Origin: Escherichia phage EC128
Sequence record: ON210139.1
Reading direction: 5' to 3' (one strand)
Length of the DNA stretch: 64,000 bases
Shown here piece by piece: positions 8,373 through 21,037 of this stretch (positions within the stretch are counted from its first letter, which is position 1; each line of letters begins with the position of its first letter). A program made the translations under genes and the position numbers. The notes under the pieces are model-generated. The model was given only the letters and a program-made list of their open reading frames with translations. It had not been told where the DNA came from and did not search any database.

Positions 8373-8702
8373 ATGAACAAGTTAGAAATTGTTAATGAAC
8401 TTCGTCGTTGTGCAGAACCTACCCAAGAGGGTTGGGACATCTGGTATCATGGAGCTTATCTTGGAACTATCGTAAAGATTAAGACTGGTAAATACATGAT
8501 TATTCGTGAAAGTAAAGATGCTCCAGTAGGTATTCGCAATAATTTCATGGCAGCGATAAGTTCCTTTACAGATGCAGCTTACGAAATTTACCTTGCCGAT
8601 TATAAAGAATTCCAGGAATCTCAACCGGTTATTCGTTCAATTGGTGTTAACAAAGCTCAGCAGAAAACTTTGTGGCAACGTATTAAAGGATGGTTTAAAT
8701 GA
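8373..8702 (+). CDS. hypothetical early protein (109 aa)
   Basis: ORF with SD; lies between motA and arn. Confidence 0.5.
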
Positions 8703-9160
8703 AAACTTTTAAAGAACGTTTAGCTCTGTTAGATAAAGCTTTGACGCGTGAGACTCCGGAAAGTCTGGCTGCTAAATTAGCTTCTTACGGTGGTGAATAT
8801 ACAGAACAAAATGTTTTAGATGAAGTTCCTGAAATCTGTTGGCAGACTCTGTATTGGGATGAAAACCAAAAGTATCAACGACGAATTGTCTGCGCAGCCA
8901 ACCGTTTTAAATTAAAAGATGGACGAACTCTTATTATTCCAGGTGCTCGTCATTATTCTAAAGACATGGCAGAAGTTTTAGATGTAGTTAAACCTCAATT
9001 AGTTACTCAACAAGTTTGTGATGATGACCAAGGGTTTATTGACCAATATAGTAATTATTGGACACGTGAAGAAGCAATGATTATTGCAACTTACGCTGGA
9101 CAAGTACGTATTGAACGTGGTGGTAATGAAAAAGAGCTTTACTCTGAGGACCTTTACTAA
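8699..9160 (+). CDS. hypothetical early protein (153 aa)
   Basis: ORF start overlaps the upstream stop (ATGA coupling). Confidence 0.5.
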
Positions 9161-9456
9161 TGAATATTAAAAAGTTTCAAATTGATGGAATTATGAATCA
9201 AATCCAGGCATTGGAATATGCTAATAAAATGATGTCAACTAATTGGGGAATTTATACCAATGAGTCGGGATTTAAGTTCTGTGATATGGAATTCACCAAA
9301 AAGCTTGTAGGAAAAGATTATGTATGTCCATTTAGTTCTCCAGTAAATGGAATGTTAAAACCTGCTTTACGCGATCTTTATATTGCGATGAACGAAGAAA
9401 TGATAAAAGAGTTAAAACGTCAACTGAAGGTGATTCAATTTGGCCAGGGAAATTAA
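9160..9456 (+). CDS. hypothetical early protein (98 aa)
   Basis: ORF coupled to the upstream stop. Confidence 0.5.
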   Translation: MNIKKFQIDGIMNQIQALEYANKMMSTNWGIYTNESGFKFCDMEFTKKLVGKDYVCPFSSPVNGMLKPALRDLYIAMNEEMIKELKRQLKVIQFGQGN

Positions 9457-9658
9457 TTCAAAATCTGACTATTTTAATTCTCTCAATGATAAAGATAAAA
9501 ATCTAATACGGCATTTTATTGTTGAGATGGGATATACTGATACACGTGATTTAAGAGAACACATATTTGAATGTGGTGTAGCTAAAAAGTTTTCATTCAC
9601 ATGCAAATGTTTAAGAGAGGTAATTCAGCACTATGAACAATTTAGTCGCAAAACATAA
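9440..9658 (+). CDS. hypothetical protein (72 aa from a TTG codon; true start uncertain)
   Basis: open frame with cysteine pairs; no ATG with a good SD at the 5' end. Confidence 0.25.
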   Translation: MAREINSKSDYFNSLNDKDKNLIRHFIVEMGYTDTRDLREHIFECGVAKKFSFTCKCLREVIQHYEQFSRKT

Positions 9659-9741
9659 TTTTAATAAAGCTTCTGTCCATAAAGATAAGAAGAAAGCGTT
9701 TAAAGAATCTAATCGCAAACAGAAACATAAGGGGAAGGTCT

Positions 9742-10020
9742 ATGATTATTGATTCTCAGTCCGTGGTTCAATATACAATCAAAATTGATATTCTAGAAAA
9801 GCTATATAAGTTTCTACCAAATTTATACCACTCAATTGTCAATGAATTAGTTGAAGAACTACATCTTGAGAATAATGATTTCTTAATTGGAACTTATAAA
9901 GACCTCTCAAAAGCAGGATATTTCTACGTAATTCCAGCTCCAGGAAAAAGTATTGATGATGTATTAAAAACTATAATGATTTATGTCCATGATTACGAAA
10001 TTGAAGATTATTTCGAATGA
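9742..10020 (+). CDS. arn: Arn anti-restriction protein (inhibitor of McrBC)
   Basis: 92-aa acidic ORF with SD GGGGAAGG; recognised as T4 Arn. Confidence 0.9.
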   Translation: MIIDSQSVVQYTIKIDILEKLYKFLPNLYHSIVNELVEELHLENNDFLIGTYKDLSKAGYFYVIPAPGKSIDDVLKTIMIYVHDYEIEDYFE

Positions 10021-10181: not shown

Positions 10182-10454
10182 ATGAATAAAAACATTGATA
10201 CAGTTCGTGAAATTATTACTATTGCGTCTATTTTGATTAAATTTTCCAGAGAAGATATTGTTGAGAATCGTGCTAATTTTATTGCATTTCTGAATGAGAT
10301 TGGAGTAACACATGAAGGTAGAAAGTTAAATCAGAATTCATTCCGTAAAATTGTTTCTGAATTAACCCAAGAAGATAAGAAAACCCTCATCGACGAATTC
10401 AACGAGGGTTTTGAGGGTGTATATCGATATCTAGAGATGTATACAAACAAATAA
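10182..10454 (+). CDS. asiA: AsiA anti-sigma-70 factor
   Basis: 90-aa ORF; recognised as T4 AsiA. Confidence 0.95.
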   Translation: MNKNIDTVREIITIASILIKFSREDIVENRANFIAFLNEIGVTHEGRKLNQNSFRKIVSELTQEDKKTLIDEFNEGFEGVYRYLEMYTNK

Positions 10455-11111
10455 TTATTTAGCCCTTCCTAATATTCTGGCCGCCTGAGAACATATTGAT
10501 TCAAGGCGGTCATTACTTATATGATCATTTCTATACCAGTACATGGTTATCGTTCCAGCATAGATATTATCCAAATTAAAATATGGACAACTGTACATGT
10601 AGTTTATTTCGGGAGTAGGCTTTTTAGTTGGTAAAAAAGCAAATTTTGAGTCAGAATAATAATGACGTCCATTTAAATGAACTGCATATTCATCCATAGT
10701 TTTATCAACAGGATATCCTCCAAGTGGTTTTTCACTTATTGTTGAAGGTAATTTTCCTTCATATGCTATAATATCAACAAAATAGTTTAAGTTTTTAGGG
10801 CGGAAAGAATACACCGCACTAAAGTCTGCCTCAGATGATATATGAACTATCTGGAGTTGTTCCAGGGCGACAGATTCAAAGCGTGCATTTCTTTCCTTTT
10901 CAATAATTTCACTGTATGTTTCATACTTTGATTGCTTATAGTACTCAAAGAAACTATCTCCCCTATACCAAACAATCGCCATCATAAATAAAAGAATTAC
11001 GACAGCTACCCGGGAAGCAAGAACTTTCCCGGTAGCGTTATCTTTGAACAAGCGATCTAGAACACCAAATAGAATATCAGAGGGCGAAAATGATATTCTA
11101 GGTGCTGCCAT
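10455..11111 (-). CDS. t: holin T
   Basis: 218-aa ORF with N-terminal TM segment and large periplasmic domain; SD AAGGAGGG; convergent with asiA. Confidence 0.95.
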   Translation of the reverse strand: MAAPRISFSPSDILFGVLDRLFKDNATGKVLASRVAVVILLFMMAIVWYRGDSFFEYYKQSKYETYSEIIEKERNARFESVALEQLQIVHISSEADFSAVYSFRPKNLNYFVDIIAYEGKLPSTISEKPLGGYPVDKTMDEYAVHLNGRHYYSDSKFAFLPTKKPTPEINYMYSCPYFNLDNIYAGTITMYWYRNDHISNDRLESICSQAARILGRAK

Positions 11112-11128
11112 AGACCCTCCTTTTAAGG

Positions 11129-11136
11129 ATATTTAT
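11129..11136 (-). promoter_or_regulatory. late promoter (TATAAATA) for t
   Basis: TATAAATA on the - strand about 20 nt upstream of the t start. Confidence 0.5.
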
Positions 11137-11156
11137 ATGCTGAGAGGTATTACCAT

Positions 11157-11930
11157 TTAAATCCAGGAACCGTAGATCGTGCCTGTTGCACCCCATGATG
11201 GTGAAGAACCGAATACCGCTCTACCTGGAGCACCACCGCCGGATCTAGATAAGTGATTACCCCATCCATCTCCACCCCGACCTCCAGCATCACCGCCATT
11301 GCCTCCGCCGAATTGGGAAGTGTAACCGGCACCGCCCGGGGCGTCATAACTAGCATTACCACCCGGCCAATTAACGCCGCCTCCGCCGATGCCAAATGGT
11401 CTACCACCACCGCCACCTGCTGTAGCATTTGGCGCCCAGCTATTCTGTAATGACACTGCACCACCACCACCGCCGCCTGATGCAATAACGCCATAGTTCC
11501 AAATACGAAGTCTTCCGCCGATATCATTTTGGATTACATCGCCGCCATTTGTGCCTGGGTTTCCGTTTACAGTACCGTTACCACCTCGTCCCCACATATG
11601 AACTCCACCATGAATATTCAAAGTAACATATTCATTTGGTGTATCTCCGTACATGAAGAATAAAGGAACATCTTTAGAATATGATACTAAATCTCCGGTG
11701 ATATTAAACACTATAGGTGCACTACCTGCCTCAAAACATCTATCTCGGAACCATTGACCATTGAAGTTATGGTCTGCTCCAAGTGTATGAATAATTTCTC
11801 TTGAGCGACCTGCAAATTGACTCATCCAGCAAGGAACACCCAATCTTAATCGTTGGGCCGCGCCACCCATCCAATTTTGTCCTGTATTAACTACTGCAGA
11901 CGATCCTACCCACGGTCCTGTTACTGCCAT
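11157..11930 (-). CDS. 38: gp38 tail-fibre adhesin, T2-type (glycine-rich motifs flanking variable segments)
   Basis: 257-aa ORF from ATG ([11 protein letters not shown]) with SD GGAGG; multiple poly-Gly blocks; longer than the 183-aa T4 gp38. Confidence 0.8.
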
Positions 11931-11961
11931 ATAAACCTCCAAGGGGCCGAAGCCCCTCTTA

Positions 11962-14900
11962 TTATTTTAACAATGATTTAACTAATGCTTTAAGTTCTTC
12001 AATTTCTGATTTAAGTTCTGCAATTTCTGCAGTATGCTCATTGATTGCAGCTGTATTTAAACCAATTACACCGTTATAGTTCAAACGAAGTAAAGCTTCG
12101 CCATCAGGGTCACCTTCAACTAATTCTGGTAAAATAGCTTGAACTTCTTGAGCAATTAAACCGGCGTTAGGTTCCCATTTCTGATTGCCTTCTTCATCTA
12201 GGCCTCGCTTCTGCATATAAGTGTAACCATTAATTTTGGAAAGCTTCTGAGAAGCATTTTCAAATTTAACAAGGTCTTTTTTAACACGAATATCAGAACG
12301 GACATAAACATCTCGAACAAACGTTGAATAACTATCATTTGCCTGAACGAGATGCCCATGAGAAACGATAGCTCTTCCAACTTCTGTCCAAAAAGCACCG
12401 GTTGAATCCCAAAGCCCAGGATGAGATTGATAGCCTGCTCCCCAGTTTGCAATATGTATACCATTGGCAACCATATTGATTCGGCCGTCACCACCATGAA
12501 CTAATCCGGTGTCATTATCACCAATAACGAGACATGGTCCAGTCCACACTGGGTCGCCACCGCCAGCCGATAATCTTGCTCCGGTTTGAACCATGTTAGG
12601 AACATACATAACTCCATTGTGGTGAAATTCATAGATAGCTTGTTGGTCGGAACCGTTTTCCTGATTACCTACACGGATAATACCTTGTGCCCATATATTA
12701 GGGGTACGGCGCATACCAAAATCAACGCCAGATATGTATCCTTCATTCGTAATAGCAGATTTTCCTTTAATAATAGGATAATAACTATCATTACCAACAT
12801 TACCAAAATCTACAAATATCGGAGCTTCTTGTCGCCATTGGTTTCCCCAATCGCCAGCCTGGTGCGCAGTCCATTGTGTACCGTTTATATGAAGGCGGTC
12901 TCTATTAAAATTAAATGTTCCTTGACCTTGAGGAGAAAGCGATATTTCGCCATTATTTGTTATGTATACACCACCCTGTGTAATGTAACTGTAAAAACCT
13001 AGACCGTTGTCGCCGCCACCTTTGCCTATATACCAGTTATTTGTACCACCTACATCACTACGGATATGTGATGAAGCACCTCCGCCAGCAGTTAAAACAA
13101 GAGCATCATTGCCTGCTGATAAAGTCAATTTACCAGTCATCGTGTCGCCTTCTTTAGAAACACGAGTAGCTATTGCATCGCGAATATTTGTGGTTTCTCC
13201 CGCAGAAGTAAACGATTTCCAAATATCTGAGAAAATATTACCATTACGAGCAATAGTAGCTTCACCGCCGCCGACTTGAACGTTATCGGGGAAATTAACT
13301 GTACCGTCTTGATTAAAACGAGACGTATGGCCTTGTGAACCATCTTCTTTTAAATGATGTAAAACAAATGTACCCGAATTAATTTCAGTACCTAAAGACC
13401 AAACAGCTTTACTGTTTAAAAACTTCTGTTTAACAATAGGATAATATTTACTTACTGCGTCATCATCGATTTCCTGGAAAATAGGAGCTGCTTGAACATA
13501 TTGAATATCATAACCACCAGCGCCAGCGCCGTGACCAGTAAATTTAATATAGCCGTTTGCTGCGAACGTATTGTAACTTGATTGTAAATCTGGAATAGTA
13601 ACTTTACCGGTATCTAAAGCCATACTAAACGGGCGAAGTGGACCGATATCGCCGTGTTTACCTTCACCGTAAGCAGTTGGAATAATATGAAGACTACCTT
13701 CTGAACGTCTAAAAATGGCTCCATAATCATTATTCCAAATACGAAGCGCATTCACAGCCCCAGATGAAATTTCGCCTGTTGTGTGAACTCCCCTATCTCC
13801 AGCAGTAACACCAGATGATTCAAATGAACCGTTAACGTTCATTTCTACTTCACCTGTTGTAAGTCTTTGAATATAGCTCATCCAACTAGTTGCATCAGAA
13901 ATTTCCATGACATTTTTACGATTACCTACATTAGGATTAGTAAACGTATTGCCCCAAACGGAAATTGTCATATTATCAACTGAACTAGCTCCGGTCGTGT
14001 TACCTCTAAACATCAGTGTAGAAGAATTATTTCTACCATCGATATTAACAGAACCGCCAATAACATCAATATTACCTGGAGTAACTAACAAACCGCCGTG
14101 AGTATTAATGTTTGTGGTACCCTTGCCGCGGAAATAATGATGATAGTTACCGCCTTGATAATATCCTAAAAGAGTCTGACCATCTCCAAACGCGTTATTA
14201 TCGTGATATGTCACGACAGTAGCGAGAGCATAGTTTTCAGTTGGAGGAGTAGTTAAATCGGTTCCGTTAGTAGAATATCCAGCTACAAATTTTCTTAGGC
14301 TAGTTGTTTCGCTGGGACTAAATAAAAATGTTCTTGTTCCATTGTTTACTGTATGAAAATATCCGTCCTGATGCCATTTTAGCCCGGTGTCATTATCACC
14401 AAGAGCAATTGAAGCAGTCCCTAATTCAGAGTATCCTTTAGAGCCACCCGGAAGACCTACAGAAATAGAATGACCGGCTTTCAATCCACCGGCCCAGTTA
14501 AACGACCAAAGATAAGTGTCTAAGCCATCTCCGGAATACCAGGTTATTCCGTCATTAACATTAACTTCGTGGAAAATACCTGCTCCTACAGCATTTCGCA
14601 TAACACGGAGGTGGTTAATAGCCGTTTCGCCTTCTGCCATTGGAGTGTTATTTGATAATGAATAGATATCATAATCGCCTGTCTTCTTCCCATTTGTAAT
14701 AACTTTATCGGTCAGAATTTGTGGAGACGAAATAGATTTCCATGCTGATACTTCAGGTGAAGTAAATAGGCCACTGCCTGAAAATGCATAAGTGCTTTCG
14801 TTACCAGCGGCGTAGTCTTGAACCCTGATATTAAGTACTTGTGTAGTTAAACCATCATTAGCCGGGGCATAAATGATTCCACGTTCGCGGCTATTGTTAT

Positions 14901-15273
14901 CGAAAAAACGAACATGCGCTGTACCTGAGCTTTTTGTAATAAGTTCTCCGCCCTCGGTCATAATTTGCCCGGCGGCAATAATATCGCGAGTTACTCGAGC
15001 AATACCAGTTAAATTAAAATTACCTGTCTGAGTGAAGACGCCATTTAAAGTATAATCGCCAGTTTGGTTATAATTGCCTGTATGAATAACATTCCCGTCA
15101 ATACTACCGCCTTTAGCAAAACCTAAATCAATAATATTTCCTTGGTCATCTTTAGTAAAAAGTACACGGTCTTTTAAGTTTATAGCCAATTCACCTTCGG
15201 CTAATACTGAAGCGGCAGGACGTGCTCCTGCAGTTTTGCTTCTTTTAAATTGTATTTGTTTTAAAGTAGCCAT
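11962..15273 (-). CDS. 37: gp37 long tail fibre distal subunit
   Basis: 1103-aa ORF; position and fibre-like repeats; C-terminal GLIAQEV...PELV motif resembling an intramolecular chaperone domain. Confidence 0.9.
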
Positions 15274-15281
15274 AAGTCCTC

Positions 15282-15938
15282 TTAATAATAGCCGAAATCT
15301 TGAACAGAATCCTTAATAACAATTTGATCAAATCGTGGAACATGTGAGGGTTGAGATGCAGGATTCTGTGAAAAAAGGTTTGGCGCAGTTAAATTTCCTG
15401 TCATAGTGTCTCCAGAGCGTAATACCCTAGAGTTTGCGTTTGCTGTAACAATATTTATTGCTCCATCAACATAATCTTTCCGTGTAAGGTCATAATTATT
15501 TACTGGAGATAATGAAGTTGCGCGTATTTGTGATGCTTCAATTACACCCTTTGAGCTAATATCTCCATTTCGCGTGTTAATTACTACAGTTCTACCCGCT
15601 GAACCCTGTGATGATTTAAAACCAATACCATACCACGAAACAATATCCATATTTGTAGTATCATACGTGGCACTATCACCAGGACCAGCAAAAATACCGT
15701 TATCGCCTGACCCTGCGCCAGGAACAGTCATTCCTTTATTAAAAATTACTTTATTTAAATAAGTACCGCCATTAGCTTTAGAAACGAAATCGTTATCAAC
15801 AGCTTGTGGCTTATTATATTCTGAATATATTTTATATGATTTATAGAGTACATCGTCACCGGCTGGATTCAATGGAAAATTTCCTTGATGCCAAATGACA
15901 GAGCCTCCGGTTGTTGAACCTACTTTTAAATCAGCCAT
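15282..15938 (-). CDS. 36: gp36 long tail fibre hinge connector
   Basis: 218-aa ORF immediately upstream of 37. Confidence 0.9.
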   Translation of the reverse strand: MADLKVGSTTGGSVIWHQGNFPLNPAGDDVLYKSYKIYSEYNKPQAVDNDFVSKANGGTYLNKVIFNKGMTVPGAGSGDNGIFAGPGDSATYDTTNMDIVSWYGIGFKSSQGSAGRTVVINTRNGDISSKGVIEASQIRATSLSPVNNYDLTRKDYVDGAINIVTANANSRVLRSGDTMTGNLTAPNLFSQNPASQPSHVPRFDQIVIKDSVQDFGYY

Positions 15939-15961
15939 TGTATGCCCCTTTATTTTAATAG

Positions 15962-15969
15962 TATTTATA
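15962..15969 (-). promoter_or_regulatory. late promoter (TATAAATA) upstream of gene 36
   Basis: TATAAATA on the - strand between the gene 35 terminator and the gene 36 start. Confidence 0.5.
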
Positions 15970-15977
15970 AAGAAAAA

Positions 15978-15995
15978 GGGAACCCGAAGGCTCCC
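15978..15995 (-). terminator. terminator hairpin after gene 35
   Basis: GGGAGCC-TTCG-GGTTCCC on the - strand followed by a T-run. Confidence 0.5.
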
Positions 15996-16000
15996 TCAAT

Positions 16001-17116
16001 TTAAACTTCTCTAAATTCTTGTCCAAACACTTTACCAGTTTTAGACGATGCTTGTGTAGGAAGTACCATTATATCTGGAGGTGAAGCAGATTCACAGACA
16101 TAATTAACTCGAATACCATTGACGCCAAATTCTGCAGGTTTTGAAATTCCGCCATTTCTTGATACTTCAGAAAAACTTAAATTCCTCATGCCACCTTGAC
16201 CTGCCTGTGCAGTTCTTTGTGCATATATCGTAAATCCTACCGCATTTTCAGGAACAACTACATAGTCTTCCTTTAATTCCCATGACCCAGCTTGACCAGT
16301 AAACTCAGCATGTGTTGAAGAAATATATCCATTCGATTCATCATAAAAACGGATAGATATATTTGTAGTTCCAAGCGCAAGTAAATCGGCATCAGCATAT
16401 AGCTGTGTTTTAAGATAAAGAACATCTCCAGGAATTAAATTATAATCAGATAATTTACTTATCGCGGATGAAGTTGGTAAACGTGCAATTTCGTTATTAG
16501 TTCCACCAACCGCTGACATAAATTGCTCAACGCTTTCATACGTTCTTCTTGGAAACCCGGTAGCTCCAACGTCTTCTAAACTATCAAATACAACATCTAA
16601 AATAGTTTGATAATCATCTGTGCTTTTTCTATTACTTAGTTTAACATGTTCTAATGCAATAGCTCTTTTAGAAGAAGTATAAAAGGCAGCATATGATACG
16701 TCAAATCTTGACAATATAGAATCAGATGGAAAAGCAGACGTTCCGGCGGTTCTTAACCAAGATACTACTTCAGGAGGAAAATTAACCTTTCCGCTAGTTA
16801 ATATAGCAACAATTCTATTATTCGTCAAAGAATTCATGAAACTAACAAAAGCAGCTGATGTAGTATCATTTGAAGTAGAAAAAGCATATGACTTACTATC
16901 AACTAATGCTCCTGTAGAAGGATCAAAAACTCTTAAATGAAGACCTGCGCTAAATGTTTGATTTCCTACAGGATTATCCTGAAATTTAACGTATGGTCCT
17001 GCTGTAGAAAGCGGGCAAGAACCCGCTATACTTATTTTATATCTTACTGAATTGCTTTCCGATAAAAATGGCGTTTGGACGTATCCTTGTCCAAACTCTG
17101 CCATAAATTTTTCCAT
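16001..17116 (-). CDS. 35: gp35 long tail fibre hinge (proximal-distal connector)
   Basis: 371-aa ORF; SD AAGAGGT. Confidence 0.9.
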   Translation of the reverse strand: MEKFMAEFGQGYVQTPFLSESNSVRYKISIAGSCPLSTAGPYVKFQDNPVGNQTFSAGLHLRVFDPSTGALVDSKSYAFSTSNDTTSAAFVSFMNSLTNNRIVAILTSGKVNFPPEVVSWLRTAGTSAFPSDSILSRFDVSYAAFYTSSKRAIALEHVKLSNRKSTDDYQTILDVVFDSLEDVGATGFPRRTYESVEQFMSAVGGTNNEIARLPTSSAISKLSDYNLIPGDVLYLKTQLYADADLLALGTTNISIRFYDESNGYISSTHAEFTGQAGSWELKEDYVVVPENAVGFTIYAQRTAQAGQGGMRNLSFSEVSRNGGISKPAEFGVNGIRVNYVCESASPPDIMVLPTQASSKTGKVFGQEFREV

Positions 17117-17124
17117 AATACCTC

Positions 17125-20100
17125 TTATTCAACCCATTCAAATTTAACCGTTTTATTCACTGGGTCAGGAACAATGCGAACATTACCAATTCGTAAGAAA
17201 TCACGAATAGTAAGATTACCCATTATAGCATTATCAGATGGTAAAGCACCAATATCAGACGGTTGAGGAGGGTTACCTCCGTCAAATACCTGAACAAAAC
17301 TTGACCAAGAGTTTTTGGTTTTCTGCCATGTGCGTGTCCAACGAGTGGTACGCGCTTCTGGTGTCGTTGGATAAGTAATCCAATCTTGGTAAAGCGAATC
17401 AAGTGTGTTACCAAACTGAGTCAATGTACCAGGAGATTTAACCTCTTCACCACGTTCTAAGTATGGAAGTCCAGTCACTTCATTAGTTTTTTCAACCATT
17501 TTAAAATAACCCGGGAACTGATTATAAGTGGCTGAATCGTTAATATCAATTGACCAGAATCCTACAGTATCAGTTGTTGGTGCGCGGGTATATAAATCAG
17601 ATGTTTTAGTACCCTGAGAACGAATTCTCGAGTTAACAGTCAAACCGCCTGAATTTATAGTAGCACCTTTGGCAATGATTAAGCTTTCGCCAATCGTTAC
17701 TTGGCCAGATGCATTATTAATAGCTAAAGGACGTAATCCATTAAATCCACCAGTCTGATCACCCGATGCAGTAAGCATAAAATTCGTTACTGATCCATCA
17801 TTGCGAACAATGAAACCATAATTTCCGCTAATAGCACGGAAAGCATTTGCGCTTCGAGAAATAATTTCACCAGTTGCAGTGACTGAATTACCAAATGTTG
17901 CTACACCATTTGCATTCAATGTTCCTGAAGCATTAACATTTATAGGTGTTACTGTACCGTTGATATTAAATGTTATATTTCCAGCTTTATTGCGCTGAGA
18001 ATAAAAATGATTAGACGTTTCATCACTAACTTCAAATACGGTAGAACGTGTTGTGTCTGATTCCCCGCTAAATTGATTTCCCCACACTCTGACTGTCATC
18101 GTTTGAGCCGGGTTTGTTCCAGTTTGAGGTCCTTTCTCAAAAATCAGACGAGTTGCCGTTCCAGTATTAGAAATAGTTAATGTACTATTTGCTGAAACTG
18201 ATCCACCGAATGTAGCAGTACTAGATGATACAAGAGGGGCACTCAGATTCGTTTGTTGTGTTAAGGTTAGTGAACCATTAACTGTCTGCGCAATGTCCCT
18301 ACGAATGAACTGAGATGAATCTAGACCATCCAATAAATTACTATCTACAGCTTTTGCTTTTAATGGCAAATAATTTGCTAATACACGGTTTAATTCATAT
18401 GGCGATACTGCATAACTATTTTTCTCGTATAATTCTAATGACTGCGTTGAACCAACTGTATCATTACCAACGAATGTAATTGAACCAGATGAAGTTTTAA
18501 CAAAACCTCTTACCAGAGTAGTAGCTGCCCAAGTAGGTTCACTCTGCACAATCCATTTTAAATTTTTTGGAGATACAGCAGTATTTGCTGACGTTCCAGC
18601 TACAGTTTCAGACTGAGTTGCAACTTTAATAACACCTTCTTGCGATTCGGTAGATTTAGTACCTAAAAGCTTTTTAGGAGTTATTAAAACATTATCTAAT
18701 GTTCCTGCAGCAGCTTCAACTTGTGTAGCTACACGAAGTGTACCACGCTGTGTCTCATTTGCTTCAAGAATATTAAGGGTATAATGGTCCCAGAGAGTTC
18801 CTGATTCAACTAATCCAGATAGAGCAACAACAGAAGTACGATCAGTACTATTAAATCTGGTTTTAATTTTTAATGGTGTAGAGATACGAGTATCGTCGAC
18901 GCCTGCGTCGAATTCAACTTGTGTGGCAATTTCAGCTATACCACTTAAACTTTCAGTTGCTTTACGGTCATTTAAAGTTTTAGGAGTGACTGCACGAGTA
19001 TAATCAGTTCCTGTATTAACTTCACTTTGCGTAGCAATTTCAATTAAACCAATTCTTGCATCAGTTGATGTCTTTTTATGTAACGTTTCTGGCGTTACAA
19101 CCGCATTTGCCCATCCTTCTTGGCTTTGTCCAGCAATTACTTCACTTTCAACTGCTAAAATTACTGCACCTTGCTGTGTTGGAGTAGCTTTATACTGATC
19201 CAAGGCTTTAGGTGAAACAACTAAGTTATTAGTGTTTTTATTATAAACATTTGTACCATTTAATTCACGGCTAGAAGCTGGAGTAGCACCTGCAGTAGAT
19301 ACAAAAGTTACAATACCAGATAATGATTCAGAACCTTGTCGAGCTTGAAGCTTTTTAGGAGTGATGATTGTAGCATCATCAGTACCTGCATTAGTTTCTT
19401 GCTGCGTAGCAATTTCAGCAACACCTCTACGAGTTTCTGTGGCAGTTCTTTCATTCAGCTTTTTAGGAGTGACGATAATATCATCAGCAAAAGAGAATGT
19501 AGTATCCTGGTTCACTTGGGCAGTAGTTGCTATTCTTGCGATACCTCTACGAGTTTCTGTAGCAGTACGGTTAGCTAATGTTTCTGGTGTAATTGCTAAT
19601 TCTTTTTGCGGAGAATTTTCTAAATCAGCATTTGCTTGAGCTTGTGTAGCTAAAGCTATTACGCCTAATCTTGCTCTAGTAGAATCATTTAAAGAATCAA
19701 CTCTTTCAACTGTTGGAACGTTTTGTTGTATAACCCAGTATTTTCCGTCAGAATCTTCTATATAAGCAAGCTGTAAAACTGGAACATAATTAGTTTCGCC
19801 GTTAAAAACTAATTCTTGAACAGTCACCCATTTAGTTTCAGGCGGATATTCTGAACGTTTTGGGAATTGCAGCAATTGAACTGAAGAAGCAATTTTATCT
19901 TCACCGGCAGCTTTGATTTTAACTGTTTGTCCTTTTCTCATATAATTCATGGAAATTTTAACAGTATCACCAATAGAAATATCAGTTGGAAGCTGAAGTT
20001 CAATTGTTTGGGTTGTTCCGTTATTCGCTCCAAATACCATAACTTCTTCATTTGGACGAATACTAGAATTAGTTGTTATAATACGTAAACGTGCTTTACT

Positions 20101-20994
20101 ATCCCCGTCAAACAATCTCCACAATTTTTCATTATCATCATACATTAAGAAACCATCAATCGATGTACGACCTTCAATAGAATGAGTTCCATCTTCTTGT
20201 ATTGAAGTAGTTTCATCGTATGTAGTAACAATTGTATGATAAAGTGGATTTAGTTTATCTAAATCGACGAAATTAATAATATCGCCATGATTAGCAAATC
20301 TCGGAAGTTTAATATTAATCGGCGCAGCGGAAGTAAATCTACGCACGATAAAATCGTTAGATTGCGCCTGATAAAGACTTGCCGGTGTTACAACTACAGC
20401 TTCTCTGCTATAATCAGCAACGTACATTTGCCACAGACGATTACTAAAAATTAAAACTATCTGTGATTTTGGATGAGTCATTAGTACTGATCGTACTTGC
20501 TGACCTCTAAAATTTACAATGCTTTGCACCGGAGCTGTAATTAAAACTTGGTTAACACCAGGTTTTCCTCCAATGTCTTGGAGAACGATAGTATCTCCAT
20601 CAATTGGGGAAGATGGTAAAGTAAATGTAATGTCATTACCAGCTGCAGTATCAACTGAAATTGATTCGCCTGACTTTAATTGATAAGGTCCTGATGAAAC
20701 AGTTGTCCAATTAGCATCAGTACGTAATGCTCTCCAGCGTACGCTATTAAAAGCTCCTGCTGGTTTTGGAATATCATTTATAGCAGCCCAAAAGCGGTTA
20801 TCATAAATGATTACAAAATCTTTTAAATATCCACGAGTTGGATCGTATTGTTGAACTGTGTTTTCTTGAATTAGGTAATCAACGTTAACACCGTCAGTTC
20901 CTACGGTACGATCAGCTAAAGCTACGTTGATTATTTTATCACCACCTGCGTCCAGACCATCTTCTGCTCTGAACTTTCTTTTAATCTCGGCCAT
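17125..20994 (-). CDS. 34: gp34 long tail fibre proximal subunit
   Basis: 1289-aa ORF; internal ~40-aa repeats; SD AGGAG. Confidence 0.95.
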   Translation of the reverse strand: MAEIKRKFRAEDGLDAGGDKIINVALADRTVGTDGVNVDYLIQENTVQQYDPTRGYLKDFVIIYDNRFWAAINDIPKPAGAFNSVRWRALRTDANWTTVSSGPYQLKSGESISVDTAAGNDITFTLPSSPIDGDTIVLQDIGGKPGVNQVLITAPVQSIVNFRGQQVRSVLMTHPKSQIVLIFSNRLWQMYVADYSREAVVVTPASLYQAQSNDFIVRRFTSAAPINIKLPRFANHGDIINFVDLDKLNPLYHTIVTTYDETTSIQEDGTHSIEGRTSIDGFLMYDDNEKLWRLFDGDSKARLRIITTNSSIRPNEEVMVFGANNGTTQTIELQLPTDISIGDTVKISMNYMRKGQTVKIKAAGEDKIASSVQLLQFPKRSEYPPETKWVTVQELVFNGETNYVPVLQLAYIEDSDGKYWVIQQNVPTVERVDSLNDSTRARLGVIALATQAQANADLENSPQKELAITPETLANRTATETRRGIARIATTAQVNQDTTFSFADDIIVTPKKLNERTATETRRGVAEIATQQETNAGTDDATIITPKKLQARQGSESLSGIVTFVSTAGATPASSRELNGTNVYNKNTNNLVVSPKALDQYKATPTQQGAVILAVESEVIAGQSQEGWANAVVTPETLHKKTSTDARIGLIEIATQSEVNTGTDYTRAVTPKTLNDRKATESLSGIAEIATQVEFDAGVDDTRISTPLKIKTRFNSTDRTSVVALSGLVESGTLWDHYTLNILEANETQRGTLRVATQVEAAAGTLDNVLITPKKLLGTKSTESQEGVIKVATQSETVAGTSANTAVSPKNLKWIVQSEPTWAATTLVRGFVKTSSGSITFVGNDTVGSTQSLELYEKNSYAVSPYELNRVLANYLPLKAKAVDSNLLDGLDSSQFIRRDIAQTVNGSLTLTQQTNLSAPLVSSSTATFGGSVSANSTLTISNTGTATRLIFEKGPQTGTNPAQTMTVRVWGNQFSGESDTTRSTVFEVSDETSNHFYSQRNKAGNITFNINGTVTPINVNASGTLNANGVATFGNSVTATGEIISRSANAFRAISGNYGFIVRNDGSVTNFMLTASGDQTGGFNGLRPLAINNASGQVTIGESLIIAKGATINSGGLTVNSRIRSQGTKTSDLYTRAPTTDTVGFWSIDINDSATYNQFPGYFKMVEKTNEVTGLPYLERGEEVKSPGTLTQFGNTLDSLYQDWITYPTTPEARTTRWTRTWQKTKNSWSSFVQVFDGGNPPQPSDIGALPSDNAIMGNLTIRDFLRIGNVRIVPDPVNKTVKFEWVE

Positions 20995-21029: not shown

Positions 21030-21037
21030 ATTTATAC
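21030..21037 (-). promoter_or_regulatory. late promoter (TATAAATA) for gene 34
   Basis: TATAAATA on the - strand upstream of the gene 34 start. Confidence 0.5.

Follow-up and report, generated by a model that had tools for sequence, protein, structure and literature searches.

Gene Content and Layout of the Locus

The window analysed here is a stretch of 64,000 nucleotides of Escherichia phage EC128 (sequence record ON210139.1), in which the long-tail-fibre genes and the holin gene occur in the order 36-37-38-t. Gene 37 (11962–15273, minus strand) encodes gp37, a 1103-aa distal long-tail-fibre subunit of the T2 type that matches PHROG 1699 ("long tail fiber protein distal subunit") with an E value of 0, and gene 38 (11157–11930, minus strand; stop codon 11157–11159, ATG 11928–11930) encodes gp38, a 257-aa receptor-recognising adhesin, also of the T2 type; both genes are on the minus strand, at the positions given in a preliminary description of this DNA. 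From the order of the open reading frames and their family assignments, gene 38 follows directly downstream of gene 37 and precedes the holin gene t (10455–11111; Pfam Phage_holin_T, 2.1e-116). Note that the mechanically listed reading frame, 11157–11942, has a TTG start and encodes 261 aa; the ATG at 11930, preceded by a GGAGG Shine-Dalgarno sequence (11936–11940, minus strand), yields the 257-aa protein, and the same start is annotated in RB51, RB69, and FL31. The exact proteins are on deposit for Escherichia phage EC128 (gp38, URO83617.1; gp37, URO83618.1), and a literature search on "phage EC128" returned no match.

The spacer between genes 37 and 38 contains a C(UUCG)G-type hairpin (11941–11958, minus strand; predicted fold −13.0 kcal/mol), and the Shine-Dalgarno sequence of gene 38 follows right after it. 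This hairpin is kept in 10 of the 10 phages compared, T4 included, and in AlbertHofmann, RB3, and T6 the stem shows compensatory changes; an Rfam scan of 10300–16100, which covered the hairpin, found no RNA family. An exact match to the T4-type late promoter motif, TATAAATA, is located upstream of t (11130–11137, minus strand), late promoters being found at 21036, 15969, and 11137. Reading frames antisense or out of frame within genes 38 and 37 (11150–11527, minus; 12586–13002, plus; 13007–13279, plus) gave no PHROG match and are treated as by-products of the coding sequence.

Family and Architecture of gp38

The gp38 sequence matches the Pfam GP38 profile over its whole length (PF05268, positions 1–218 of 218; 2.3e-83, 279.8 bits with a cut-off of 25), Pfam Gp38_N likewise (PF21721, positions 1–40 of 40; 6.7e-20, 71.3 bits), and PHROG 2056 ("tail fiber protein; host specificity", 4.6e-108). 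Among known structures, it matches the receptor-binding domain of PP01 gp38 (PDB 9v85, 9.1e-74) and, over residues 1–257, S16 gp38 (PDB 6f45_D, 6.9e-50). The Gp38_N match defines an N-terminal attachment domain (residues 1–40; 11811–11930, minus strand), which is expected to dock onto the gp37 trimer's tip, since the N terminus of gp38 has a role in gp37 binding (PMC3157838, PMC12892980).

Glycine makes up 25% of gp38 and 34% of residues 110–257, with runs at 152–157, 172–176, 182–185, 208–210, and 231–233. In the C-terminal half, five glycine-rich motifs (GRM) alternate with four variable segments (HVS), and their positions delimit a specificity domain at 11223–11591 on the minus strand. Read in the direction of translation, this consists of GRM1 (GRGGNG, residues 114–119; 11574–11591), HVS1 (11478–11573), GRM2 (GGGGGG, residues 152–157; 11460–11477), HVS2 (11418–11459), GRM3 (residues 172–185; 11376–11417), HVS3 (11310–11375), GRM4 (GGGNGG, residues 208–213; 11292–11309), HVS4 (11241–11291), and GRM5 (GGGAPG, residues 231–236; 11223–11240), all on the minus strand. 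The preliminary description, which had noted several poly-glycine blocks separating variable segments in a 257-aa protein, is thus confirmed and made specific. A protein alignment of 10 phages shows no variation in the glycine-rich motifs, the intervening segments being variable, and because of the matches to Pfam GP38, Gp38_N, and PHROG 2056 this architecture is not due to chance. The GC content of the specificity domain (0.49–0.53, as against 0.30–0.40 around it) is raised because of its GGN codons. Homology to 6f45_D and 9v85 suggests that the domain adopts the polyglycine-II sandwich fold.

Some database records give the gp38 family the name "distal long tail fiber assembly catalyst", which would accord with gp38 being, as in T4, no more than an assembly chaperone, with the tip of gp37 itself binding the receptor; however, notes in the T4 and RB69 records indicate that such names derive from the annotation of T4. 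T4 gp38 (183 aa) has no similarity to the EC128 protein: the 21% identity obtained in a forced alignment is meaningless, and a tblastn search of the whole 64-kb window with T4 gp38 (E ≤ 1e-3) found no match. Furthermore, the C-terminal receptor-binding region of T4 gp37 is missing from EC128 gp37, and homologues of gp38 have been crystallised as fibre-tip adhesins (6f45, 9v85). A purely chaperone function is already refuted by these comparisons and has a negligible probability, and the earlier view that gp38 is a T2/T6-type adhesin rather than a T4-type chaperone stands.

The C-terminal Domain of gp37

EC128 gp37 is 94.7% identical in amino acid sequence to that of vB_Eco_CP and 94.4% identical to that of PE37; T4 gp37 aligns only through its residues 1–743, with 34% identity. 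Residues 993–1052 of the 1103 match Peptidase_S74, "chaperone of endosialidase" (PF13884; 2.2e-12, 47.5 bits with a cut-off of 22), from profile position 1, so marking a C-terminal intramolecular chaperone (residues 993–1103; 11965–12297, minus strand) that has the Peptidase_S74 core at 12118–12297, followed by a helical tail. In the endosialidase literature, S74 domains begin with a catalytic dyad whose Ser and Lys are five positions apart. The motif SDIRVKK occurs at residue 993 of gp37 (S993-D-I-R-V-K998), and Ser993 and Lys998 are kept in gp37 of T2, T6, RB3, RB51, PE37, FL31, and S16; all the T2-type gp37 sequences compared have the Ser-x4-Lys arrangement, and T4 does not. The domain thus resembles those of the endosialidase type in matching the profile from position 1 and in its Ser-x4-Lys, C-terminal site, and helical tail, but the endosialidase-type domains are carried on tailspikes, whereas this one is on the shaft of a T-even long tail fibre and its cleavage is predicted.

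The similarity extends to a known structure, as gp37 matches PDB 6f45_A with an E value of 4.7e-46 (1.8e-37 with the last 143 aa); the C-terminal search also gave weak matches to MYRF and to another phage tail fibre. The C-terminal strings that led the preliminary description to propose an intramolecular chaperone or self-cleaving domain in the 1103-aa protein are present, within or just past the Peptidase_S74 match, and the proposal agrees with this match and with the Ser993/Lys998 pair. Autoproteolytic C-terminal processing of T2 gp37 is known (Drexler 1986, cited in PMC3157838), and by analogy with T2 it is predicted that EC128 gp37 is cut at Ser993 and its C-terminal domain released.

Cassette Boundaries and Mosaic Structure

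The DNA is 97–99% identical to T4 up to 11137, within the late promoter of gene t, which forms the left-hand junction of the cassette; the homologies to T4, PE37, and RB3 all break at 11136–11137. The blastn alignment with T4 resumes at 15107, near gp37 residue 55, and continues at about 93% identity over the next 8.7 kb, so that the N-terminal ∼55 aa of gp37 (15109–15273, minus strand), conserved with T4, constitute the right-hand junction. The block without DNA homology to T4 (11138–15106) comprises the t-38 spacer, gene 38, and codons ∼56–1103 of gene 37. Because nothing aligns to T4 between 11137 and 15107, the T2-type cassette is, by DNA comparison, a discrete replacement relative to T4. 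T4 shares with EC128 the position of the locus, the gp37 N terminus, the spacer hairpin, and flanking genes that are 97–99% identical, but it has an unrelated gp38 of 183 aa and a gp37 that lacks the S74 domain and carries a receptor-binding extension at its C terminus.

The term "T2-type" is a class name only. T2 and T6 have the same gp38 family, GRM/HVS layout, S74 end of gp37, and locus position but different variable loops, and gp38 identity is 49% to T2 and 66% to T6, as compared with 97% to RB51 and to FL31, 94% to RB69, and 93% to AlbertHofmann. The earlier designation therefore holds for the class but not for the allele, which is neither that of T2 nor that of T6. The last 300 aa of gp37 are 89% identical to RB51, 45% to T6, and 35% to T2. 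Within the OmpF allele group, gp38 of RB51 and RB68 (Tequatrovirus) and of RB69 and FL31 (Mosigvirus) is 257 aa in length, as in the window, and that of the Mosigvirus AlbertHofmann is 259 aa; the group also has the gene order 36-37-38-t and the spacer hairpin of the window. Residues 48–257 of gp38, which contain all of the variable loops and Gln206, are identical to RB51, with 0–2 DNA mismatches per 60 nt in the specificity domain. RB51, RB69, and FL31 have the same HVS1–4 as the window, and AlbertHofmann has R220W in HVS4; outside the loops in this region, RB69 has D80N and FL31 has I181L in GRM3, its sole difference there.

EC128 differs from RB51 at gp38 residues 30–47 and in the partner gp37. 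Protein alignment places residues 30–47 (11790–11843, minus strand) with RB3, T6, and AlbertHofmann, as a patch in an otherwise RB51-type protein; at 11860–11801 and 11800–11741, there are 7 and 0 mismatches per 60 nt to RB3 and 20 and 6 to RB51. In gene 37, the segment 12341–12460 has 18–26 mismatches per 60 nt to RB51 and none to PE37 or FL31, a PE37/FL31-like composition that rules out a single donor, such as RB51, for the whole cassette. Across the locus the nearest relative changes every 100–500 bp, among RB51-, PE37/FL31-, and RB3/T6-like patches. In sliding-identity comparisons with the Mosigvirus FL31, the flanks are 58–88% identical and 11200–12400 is 93–99.5% identical. The earlier proposal that the host-range module differs from T4 in otherwise T4-like DNA is upheld, with the qualification that the exchange seen in the lineage of EC128 itself is of finer grain than the swap of a whole cassette.

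The direction of exchange is a separate matter. The closest backbone relatives of EC128 (RB3, RB51, PE37, T6, and T2) all have T2-type genes 37 and 38, phage records with the T2-type adhesin number 829 and those with the T4-type chaperone 297, and the T2-type arrangement has been described as the predominant form (PMC3157838); T4 is the unusual phage here, not EC128. The chances are about even that no cassette was imported at all, the T2-type tip being ancestral and the exchange that separates it from T4 having occurred in the lineage of T4. However, this bears only on direction and leaves recombination in place, since EC128 changes nearest relative at intervals of 100–500 bp among T2-type alleles and has a near-identical specificity domain in common with Mosigvirus phages whose flanks are 58–88% identical. 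A stronger version of the mosaic, in which the tip is a chimera of three parents in a combination without a counterpart in the phage collection and the residue 30–47 patch either compensates for gp37-gp38 compatibility or accompanies a receptor range different from that of RB51, is improbable. If it were true, an RB51-type specificity domain, an RB3/T6-type attachment patch, and a PE37/FL31-type gp37 tip would be combined, and a compensatory patch would fit an OmpF-type gp38 to a gp37 tip normally paired with an OmpC-type gp38 and would show which residues determine whether gp37 and gp38 are compatible.

Receptor Specificity

The primary receptor of EC128 is predicted to be the E. coli porin OmpF because all four gp38 loops, including Gln206, are identical to those of RB51; as in the OmpF-type group, residue 206 is Gln, encoded in the window by CAA (11313–11315, in HVS3). 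This prediction from the variable loops, which the preliminary description had proposed making, rests on identity to relatives. OmpF is required by RB51 and RB69 (PMC3157838), is the target of AlbertHofmann/Bas47 (PMC8594841), and has been assigned as receptor to FL31 and FL33 (PMC12032242). By comparison, T2 uses FadL/OmpF and T6 uses Tsx (PMC3157838), and the S16 and PP01 adhesins (PDB 6F45 and 9V85), to which gp38 is homologous over its full length and, in S16, gp37 at its C terminus including SDxRxKK, bind OmpC and have variable loops unlike those of the window.

Published work on the same allele group also indicates how a T2-type adhesin might have a receptor that is not simply OmpF. RB51 is OmpF-dependent, but Q206L alone moves it to OmpW (bioRxiv 10.64898/2026.04.02.716166), and in the window this substitution corresponds to a single A-to-T change at 11314; RB51 and RB69 were reported also to need FhuA and a full-length LPS core (Trojet et al., PMC3157838); and plating of FL31 is down by only about one log on ompF and tolC mutants (PMC12032242). 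OmpW, a combination of OmpF with FhuA and LPS core, or a weak contribution of OmpF is nevertheless unlikely as the description of EC128, since the window has Gln206 and every variable-loop residue of RB51, an allele group put on OmpF by three independent studies. Along with OmpF as the predicted primary receptor, EC128 may have an RB51-type dependence on more than OmpF alone, and the gp37 tip and gp38 N-terminal domain, which differ in parentage from those of RB51, may have an effect on fibre geometry.

Proposed Mechanism and Significance

The comparisons point with high confidence to a standard T2-type distal tail-fibre tip carrying the RB51/RB69 (OmpF) allele, and none of the findings speaks against this architecture. 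In the mechanism proposed, the TATAAATA promoter at 15969 would drive late transcription of genes 36, 37, and 38, and gp37 would trimerise assisted by the S74 intramolecular-chaperone domain at its C terminus; this domain would then remove itself by Ser993/Lys998-mediated cleavage, releasing about 111 residues and exposing the fibre tip. One molecule of gp38 would dock on the exposed tip through its N-terminal domain and present a polyglycine-II sandwich of five glycine-rich motifs, the four loops between which would contact the receptor. The patchwork locus and the specificity domain shared with Mosigvirus would be explained because the conserved glycine-rich motifs, the gp37 N terminus, and the spacers act as recombination joints.

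A T2-type adhesin cassette with an OmpF allele is ordinary and already known biology, and the EC128 cassette makes no open question newly testable. For annotation and phage therapy, the gene 38 product should be labelled a gp38 adhesin and not an "assembly catalyst", with OmpF as the likely primary receptor, and retargeting to OmpW is expected from an A-to-T change at position 11314. EC128 provides one further example of the well-documented way in which T-even phages exchange their adhesin cassettes as modules, with joints at conserved motifs, across genera as well.

The gp38 Adhesin and Its Predicted Receptor

The fiber tip encoded by EC128 is of the textbook T2 type: its adhesin cassette, in which a separate gp38 adhesin is predicted to cap a self-cleaving gp37, carries the RB51/RB69 OmpF allele. 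The product of gene 38 matches Pfam GP38 over the entire profile (2.3e-83), Pfam Gp38_N (6.7e-20), and PHROG 2056, "tail fiber protein; host specificity" (4.6e-108), and its structural matches are 9v85, identified as the receptor-binding domain of PP01 gp38 (PMC12892980; 9.1e-74), and 6f45_D, S16 gp38 complexed with the gp37 tip (6.9e-50, residues 1–257 aligned). Its glycine content is 25%, and five glycine-rich motifs (residues 114–119, 152–157, 172–185, 208–213, and 231–236) alternate with four variable segments, an arrangement that both Trojet et al. (PMC3157838) and Lutz et al. (PMC12032242) have reported. The 183-residue assembly chaperone, T4 gp38, reaches 21% identity in a forced alignment and gave no tblastn match across the entire 64-kb window; by sequence, the two proteins are unrelated. 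The preliminary description, which recognized a 257-residue protein with glycine blocks as a T2/T6-type adhesin and not the T4 chaperone, thus holds, and the alignment with T4 gp38 on which it was to be judged falls far below that with RB51. The family is shared with T2 and T6, but identity to these (49 and 66%) is lower than to RB51, FL31, and the GenBank record of RB68 (97%), RB69 (94%), and AlbertHofmann (93%).

From residue 48 to the C terminus gp38 is identical to that of RB51, all variable loops included, and it has Gln206 (codon CAA, 11313–11315). Genome-wide screens showed RB51 to depend on OmpF, and the substitution Q206L alone switches its specificity to OmpW (bioRxiv 10.64898/2026.04.02.716166). 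Trojet et al. scored RB51 and RB69 as requiring OmpF, along with FhuA and the LPS core (PMC3157838); the receptor of AlbertHofmann (Bas47) is OmpF (PMC8594841); and OmpF is the assigned receptor of FL31 and FL33, the loss of FL31 on an ompF mutant being only about one log (PMC12032242). The RB51-identical loops with Gln206, together with these data on relatives, lead to OmpF as the predicted primary receptor, with moderate-to-high confidence. It should be noted that gp38 in the GenBank record of RB68 (KM607004, locus 101–874) is identical to RB51 gp38 (locus 9001–9774) and has Gln206, whereas the OmpW specificity of the RB68 stock in the preprint was attributed to Leu206 (bioRxiv 10.64898/2026.04.02.716166); the deposited sequence therefore differs from that of the phenotyped stock.

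The C-terminal Domain of gp37

A Peptidase_S74 "chaperone of endosialidase" domain is present at residues 993–1052 of gp37 (47.5 bits, cut-off 22), the match beginning at profile position 1 with S993-D-I-R-V-K998, in agreement with the earlier proposal of a C-terminal intramolecular chaperone or self-cleaving domain. The S16 gp37 C terminus (6f45_A) aligns with the last 190 residues (4.7e-46) and with the last 143 (1.8e-37), and in an alignment of the last 300 residues an RSDxRxK motif and helical tail are common to RB51, FL31, PE37, RB3, T6, and T2. In contrast, T4 gp37 lacks the S74 domain and ends in a histidine-rich receptor-binding region; it can be aligned with EC128 gp37 only over T4 residues 1–743, with 34% identity. 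According to Drexler (1986), as cited in PMC3157838, the C terminus of T2 gp37 is proteolytically lost before capping by gp38. By analogy, cleavage is predicted at Ser993 and would free 111 residues. In a collection of 15 billion proteins gp37 is alone in its 90%-identity cluster, despite 94.7% identity to vB_Eco_CP gp37 by tblastn, and this is probably a clustering artefact rather than genuine isolation.

Organization of the Locus

From ORFs and family assignment, genes 34 (17125–20994), 35 (16001–17116), 36 (15282–15938), 37 (11962–15273; 1103 residues), 38 (11157–11930; 257 residues counted from the ATG), and holin gene t (10455–11111), all on the minus strand, are in the T4 order. The ORF call for gene 38 begins at a TTG four codons before the ATG; the ATG is preceded by the ribosome-binding site GGAGG, and RB51, RB69, and FL31 are annotated with this start. 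Late promoters of the T4 type (TATAAATA) were found at 21036, 15969, and 11137, a placement from which genes 36–38 should share one late transcript, with t promoted separately.

The 37–38 spacer (11931–11961, minus strand) contains a stable C(UUCG)G-type hairpin (11941–11958) between the gene 37 stop codon and the gene 38 Shine-Dalgarno sequence. All 10 phages compared, T4 among them, have this hairpin: it is conserved in T4, T2, RB51, RB69, FL31, and PE37, and AlbertHofmann, RB3, and T6 have compensatory stem changes and loop changes with pairing kept (−11 to −14 kcal/mol). The hairpin falls within the block lacking BLAST homology to T4. Long out-of-frame or antisense ORFs within genes 38 and 37 (11150–11527 (−), 11253–11450 (+), 12586–13002 (+), and 13007–13279 (+)) look like by-products of the coding sequence; the three scanned (all except 11253–11450) had no PHROG match, and those in gene 38 coincide with a GC-rich (0.49–0.53) stretch of GGN codons. 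In gp35, the hinge protein, residues 58–126 match Pfam ILEI, interleukin-like EMT inducer (PF15711; 1e-08, 36 bits, cut-off 27), an unexpected label for a fiber hinge.

Mosaic Structure and Distribution

The backbone is that of a Tequatrovirus (RB3 is 96% identical over 24 kb), with flanks 95–99% identical to RB51, PE37, T6, T2, and T4. Identity to T4 DNA is 97–99% up to 11137, within the late promoter of t; no T4 alignment was found from there to 15107, about residue 55 of gp37, where it resumes. The homology of PE37 and RB3 also breaks at 11136, and therefore the left joint is the conserved t promoter region; the right joint is the conserved gp36-binding end of gp37.

Within the locus the nearest relative switches every few hundred bases. 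The gp37 tip (12341–12460) is identical to PE37 and FL31, with 18–26 mismatches per 60 nucleotides to RB51; the S74 domain, spacer, and first gp38 codons (11861–12220) are near-identical to RB51 and FL31 (0–4 per 60), PE37 having 0–7, mostly at 12101–12220; gp38 residues ∼24–63 (11741–11860) are closest to RB3 (7 and 0 mismatches versus 20 and 6 for RB51); and the specificity domain and downstream sequence (11101–11620) are RB51-like (0–2 per 60). The closest gp37 proteins are those of PE37 and its group (94–95% amino acid identity), whose gp38, however, is PP01-like and OmpC-type; the history of gp37 here is therefore separate from that of the gp38 specificity domain. Adjoining the cassette, the middle of gp36 (15400–15800) carries an allele other than that of T4 and T2 (64–73% DNA identity), with RB51 and PE37 at 92–97% and T6 and RB3 unalignable, and is a second allele swap. 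In a gp34 patch (17600–18200) T4 and T2 are 59–88%, RB51 and T6 94–99%, and RB3 88–99.5% identical; with relatives shifting in this way, the proximal half-fiber is likewise mosaic. Relatives also switch over a short stretch of the arn-region genes (8400–8800), RB51 falling to 80% at 8400–8600 and T6, T2, and RB3 to 79% at 8600–8800, while PE37 remains 95–97% identical.

FL31, RB69, and AlbertHofmann belong to Mosigvirus. RB69 and AlbertHofmann have few mismatches over the specificity domain, and the flanks of FL31 are only 58–88% identical to the window but 93–99.5% over 11200–12400, from which it follows that the adhesin module has moved between genera. The modular exchange first proposed, of a cassette that differs from T4 amid T4-like DNA, is upheld, and the mosaic pattern is consistent with a published model in which conserved motifs serve as sites of recombination (PMC3157838).

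By tblastn the T2-type adhesin occurs in 829 phage records versus 297 for the T4-type chaperone, and the T2-type tip is present in every close backbone relative. The exact gp38 and gp37 are deposited for Escherichia phage EC128 as URO83617.1 and URO83618.1, annotated only "tail fibers protein" and "tail fiber"; no paper on this phage was found in the literature. Over the full region, the closest DNA in the phage collection is that of FL31, at 91%, which indicates that the combination of patches is particular to EC128, yet every component is known.
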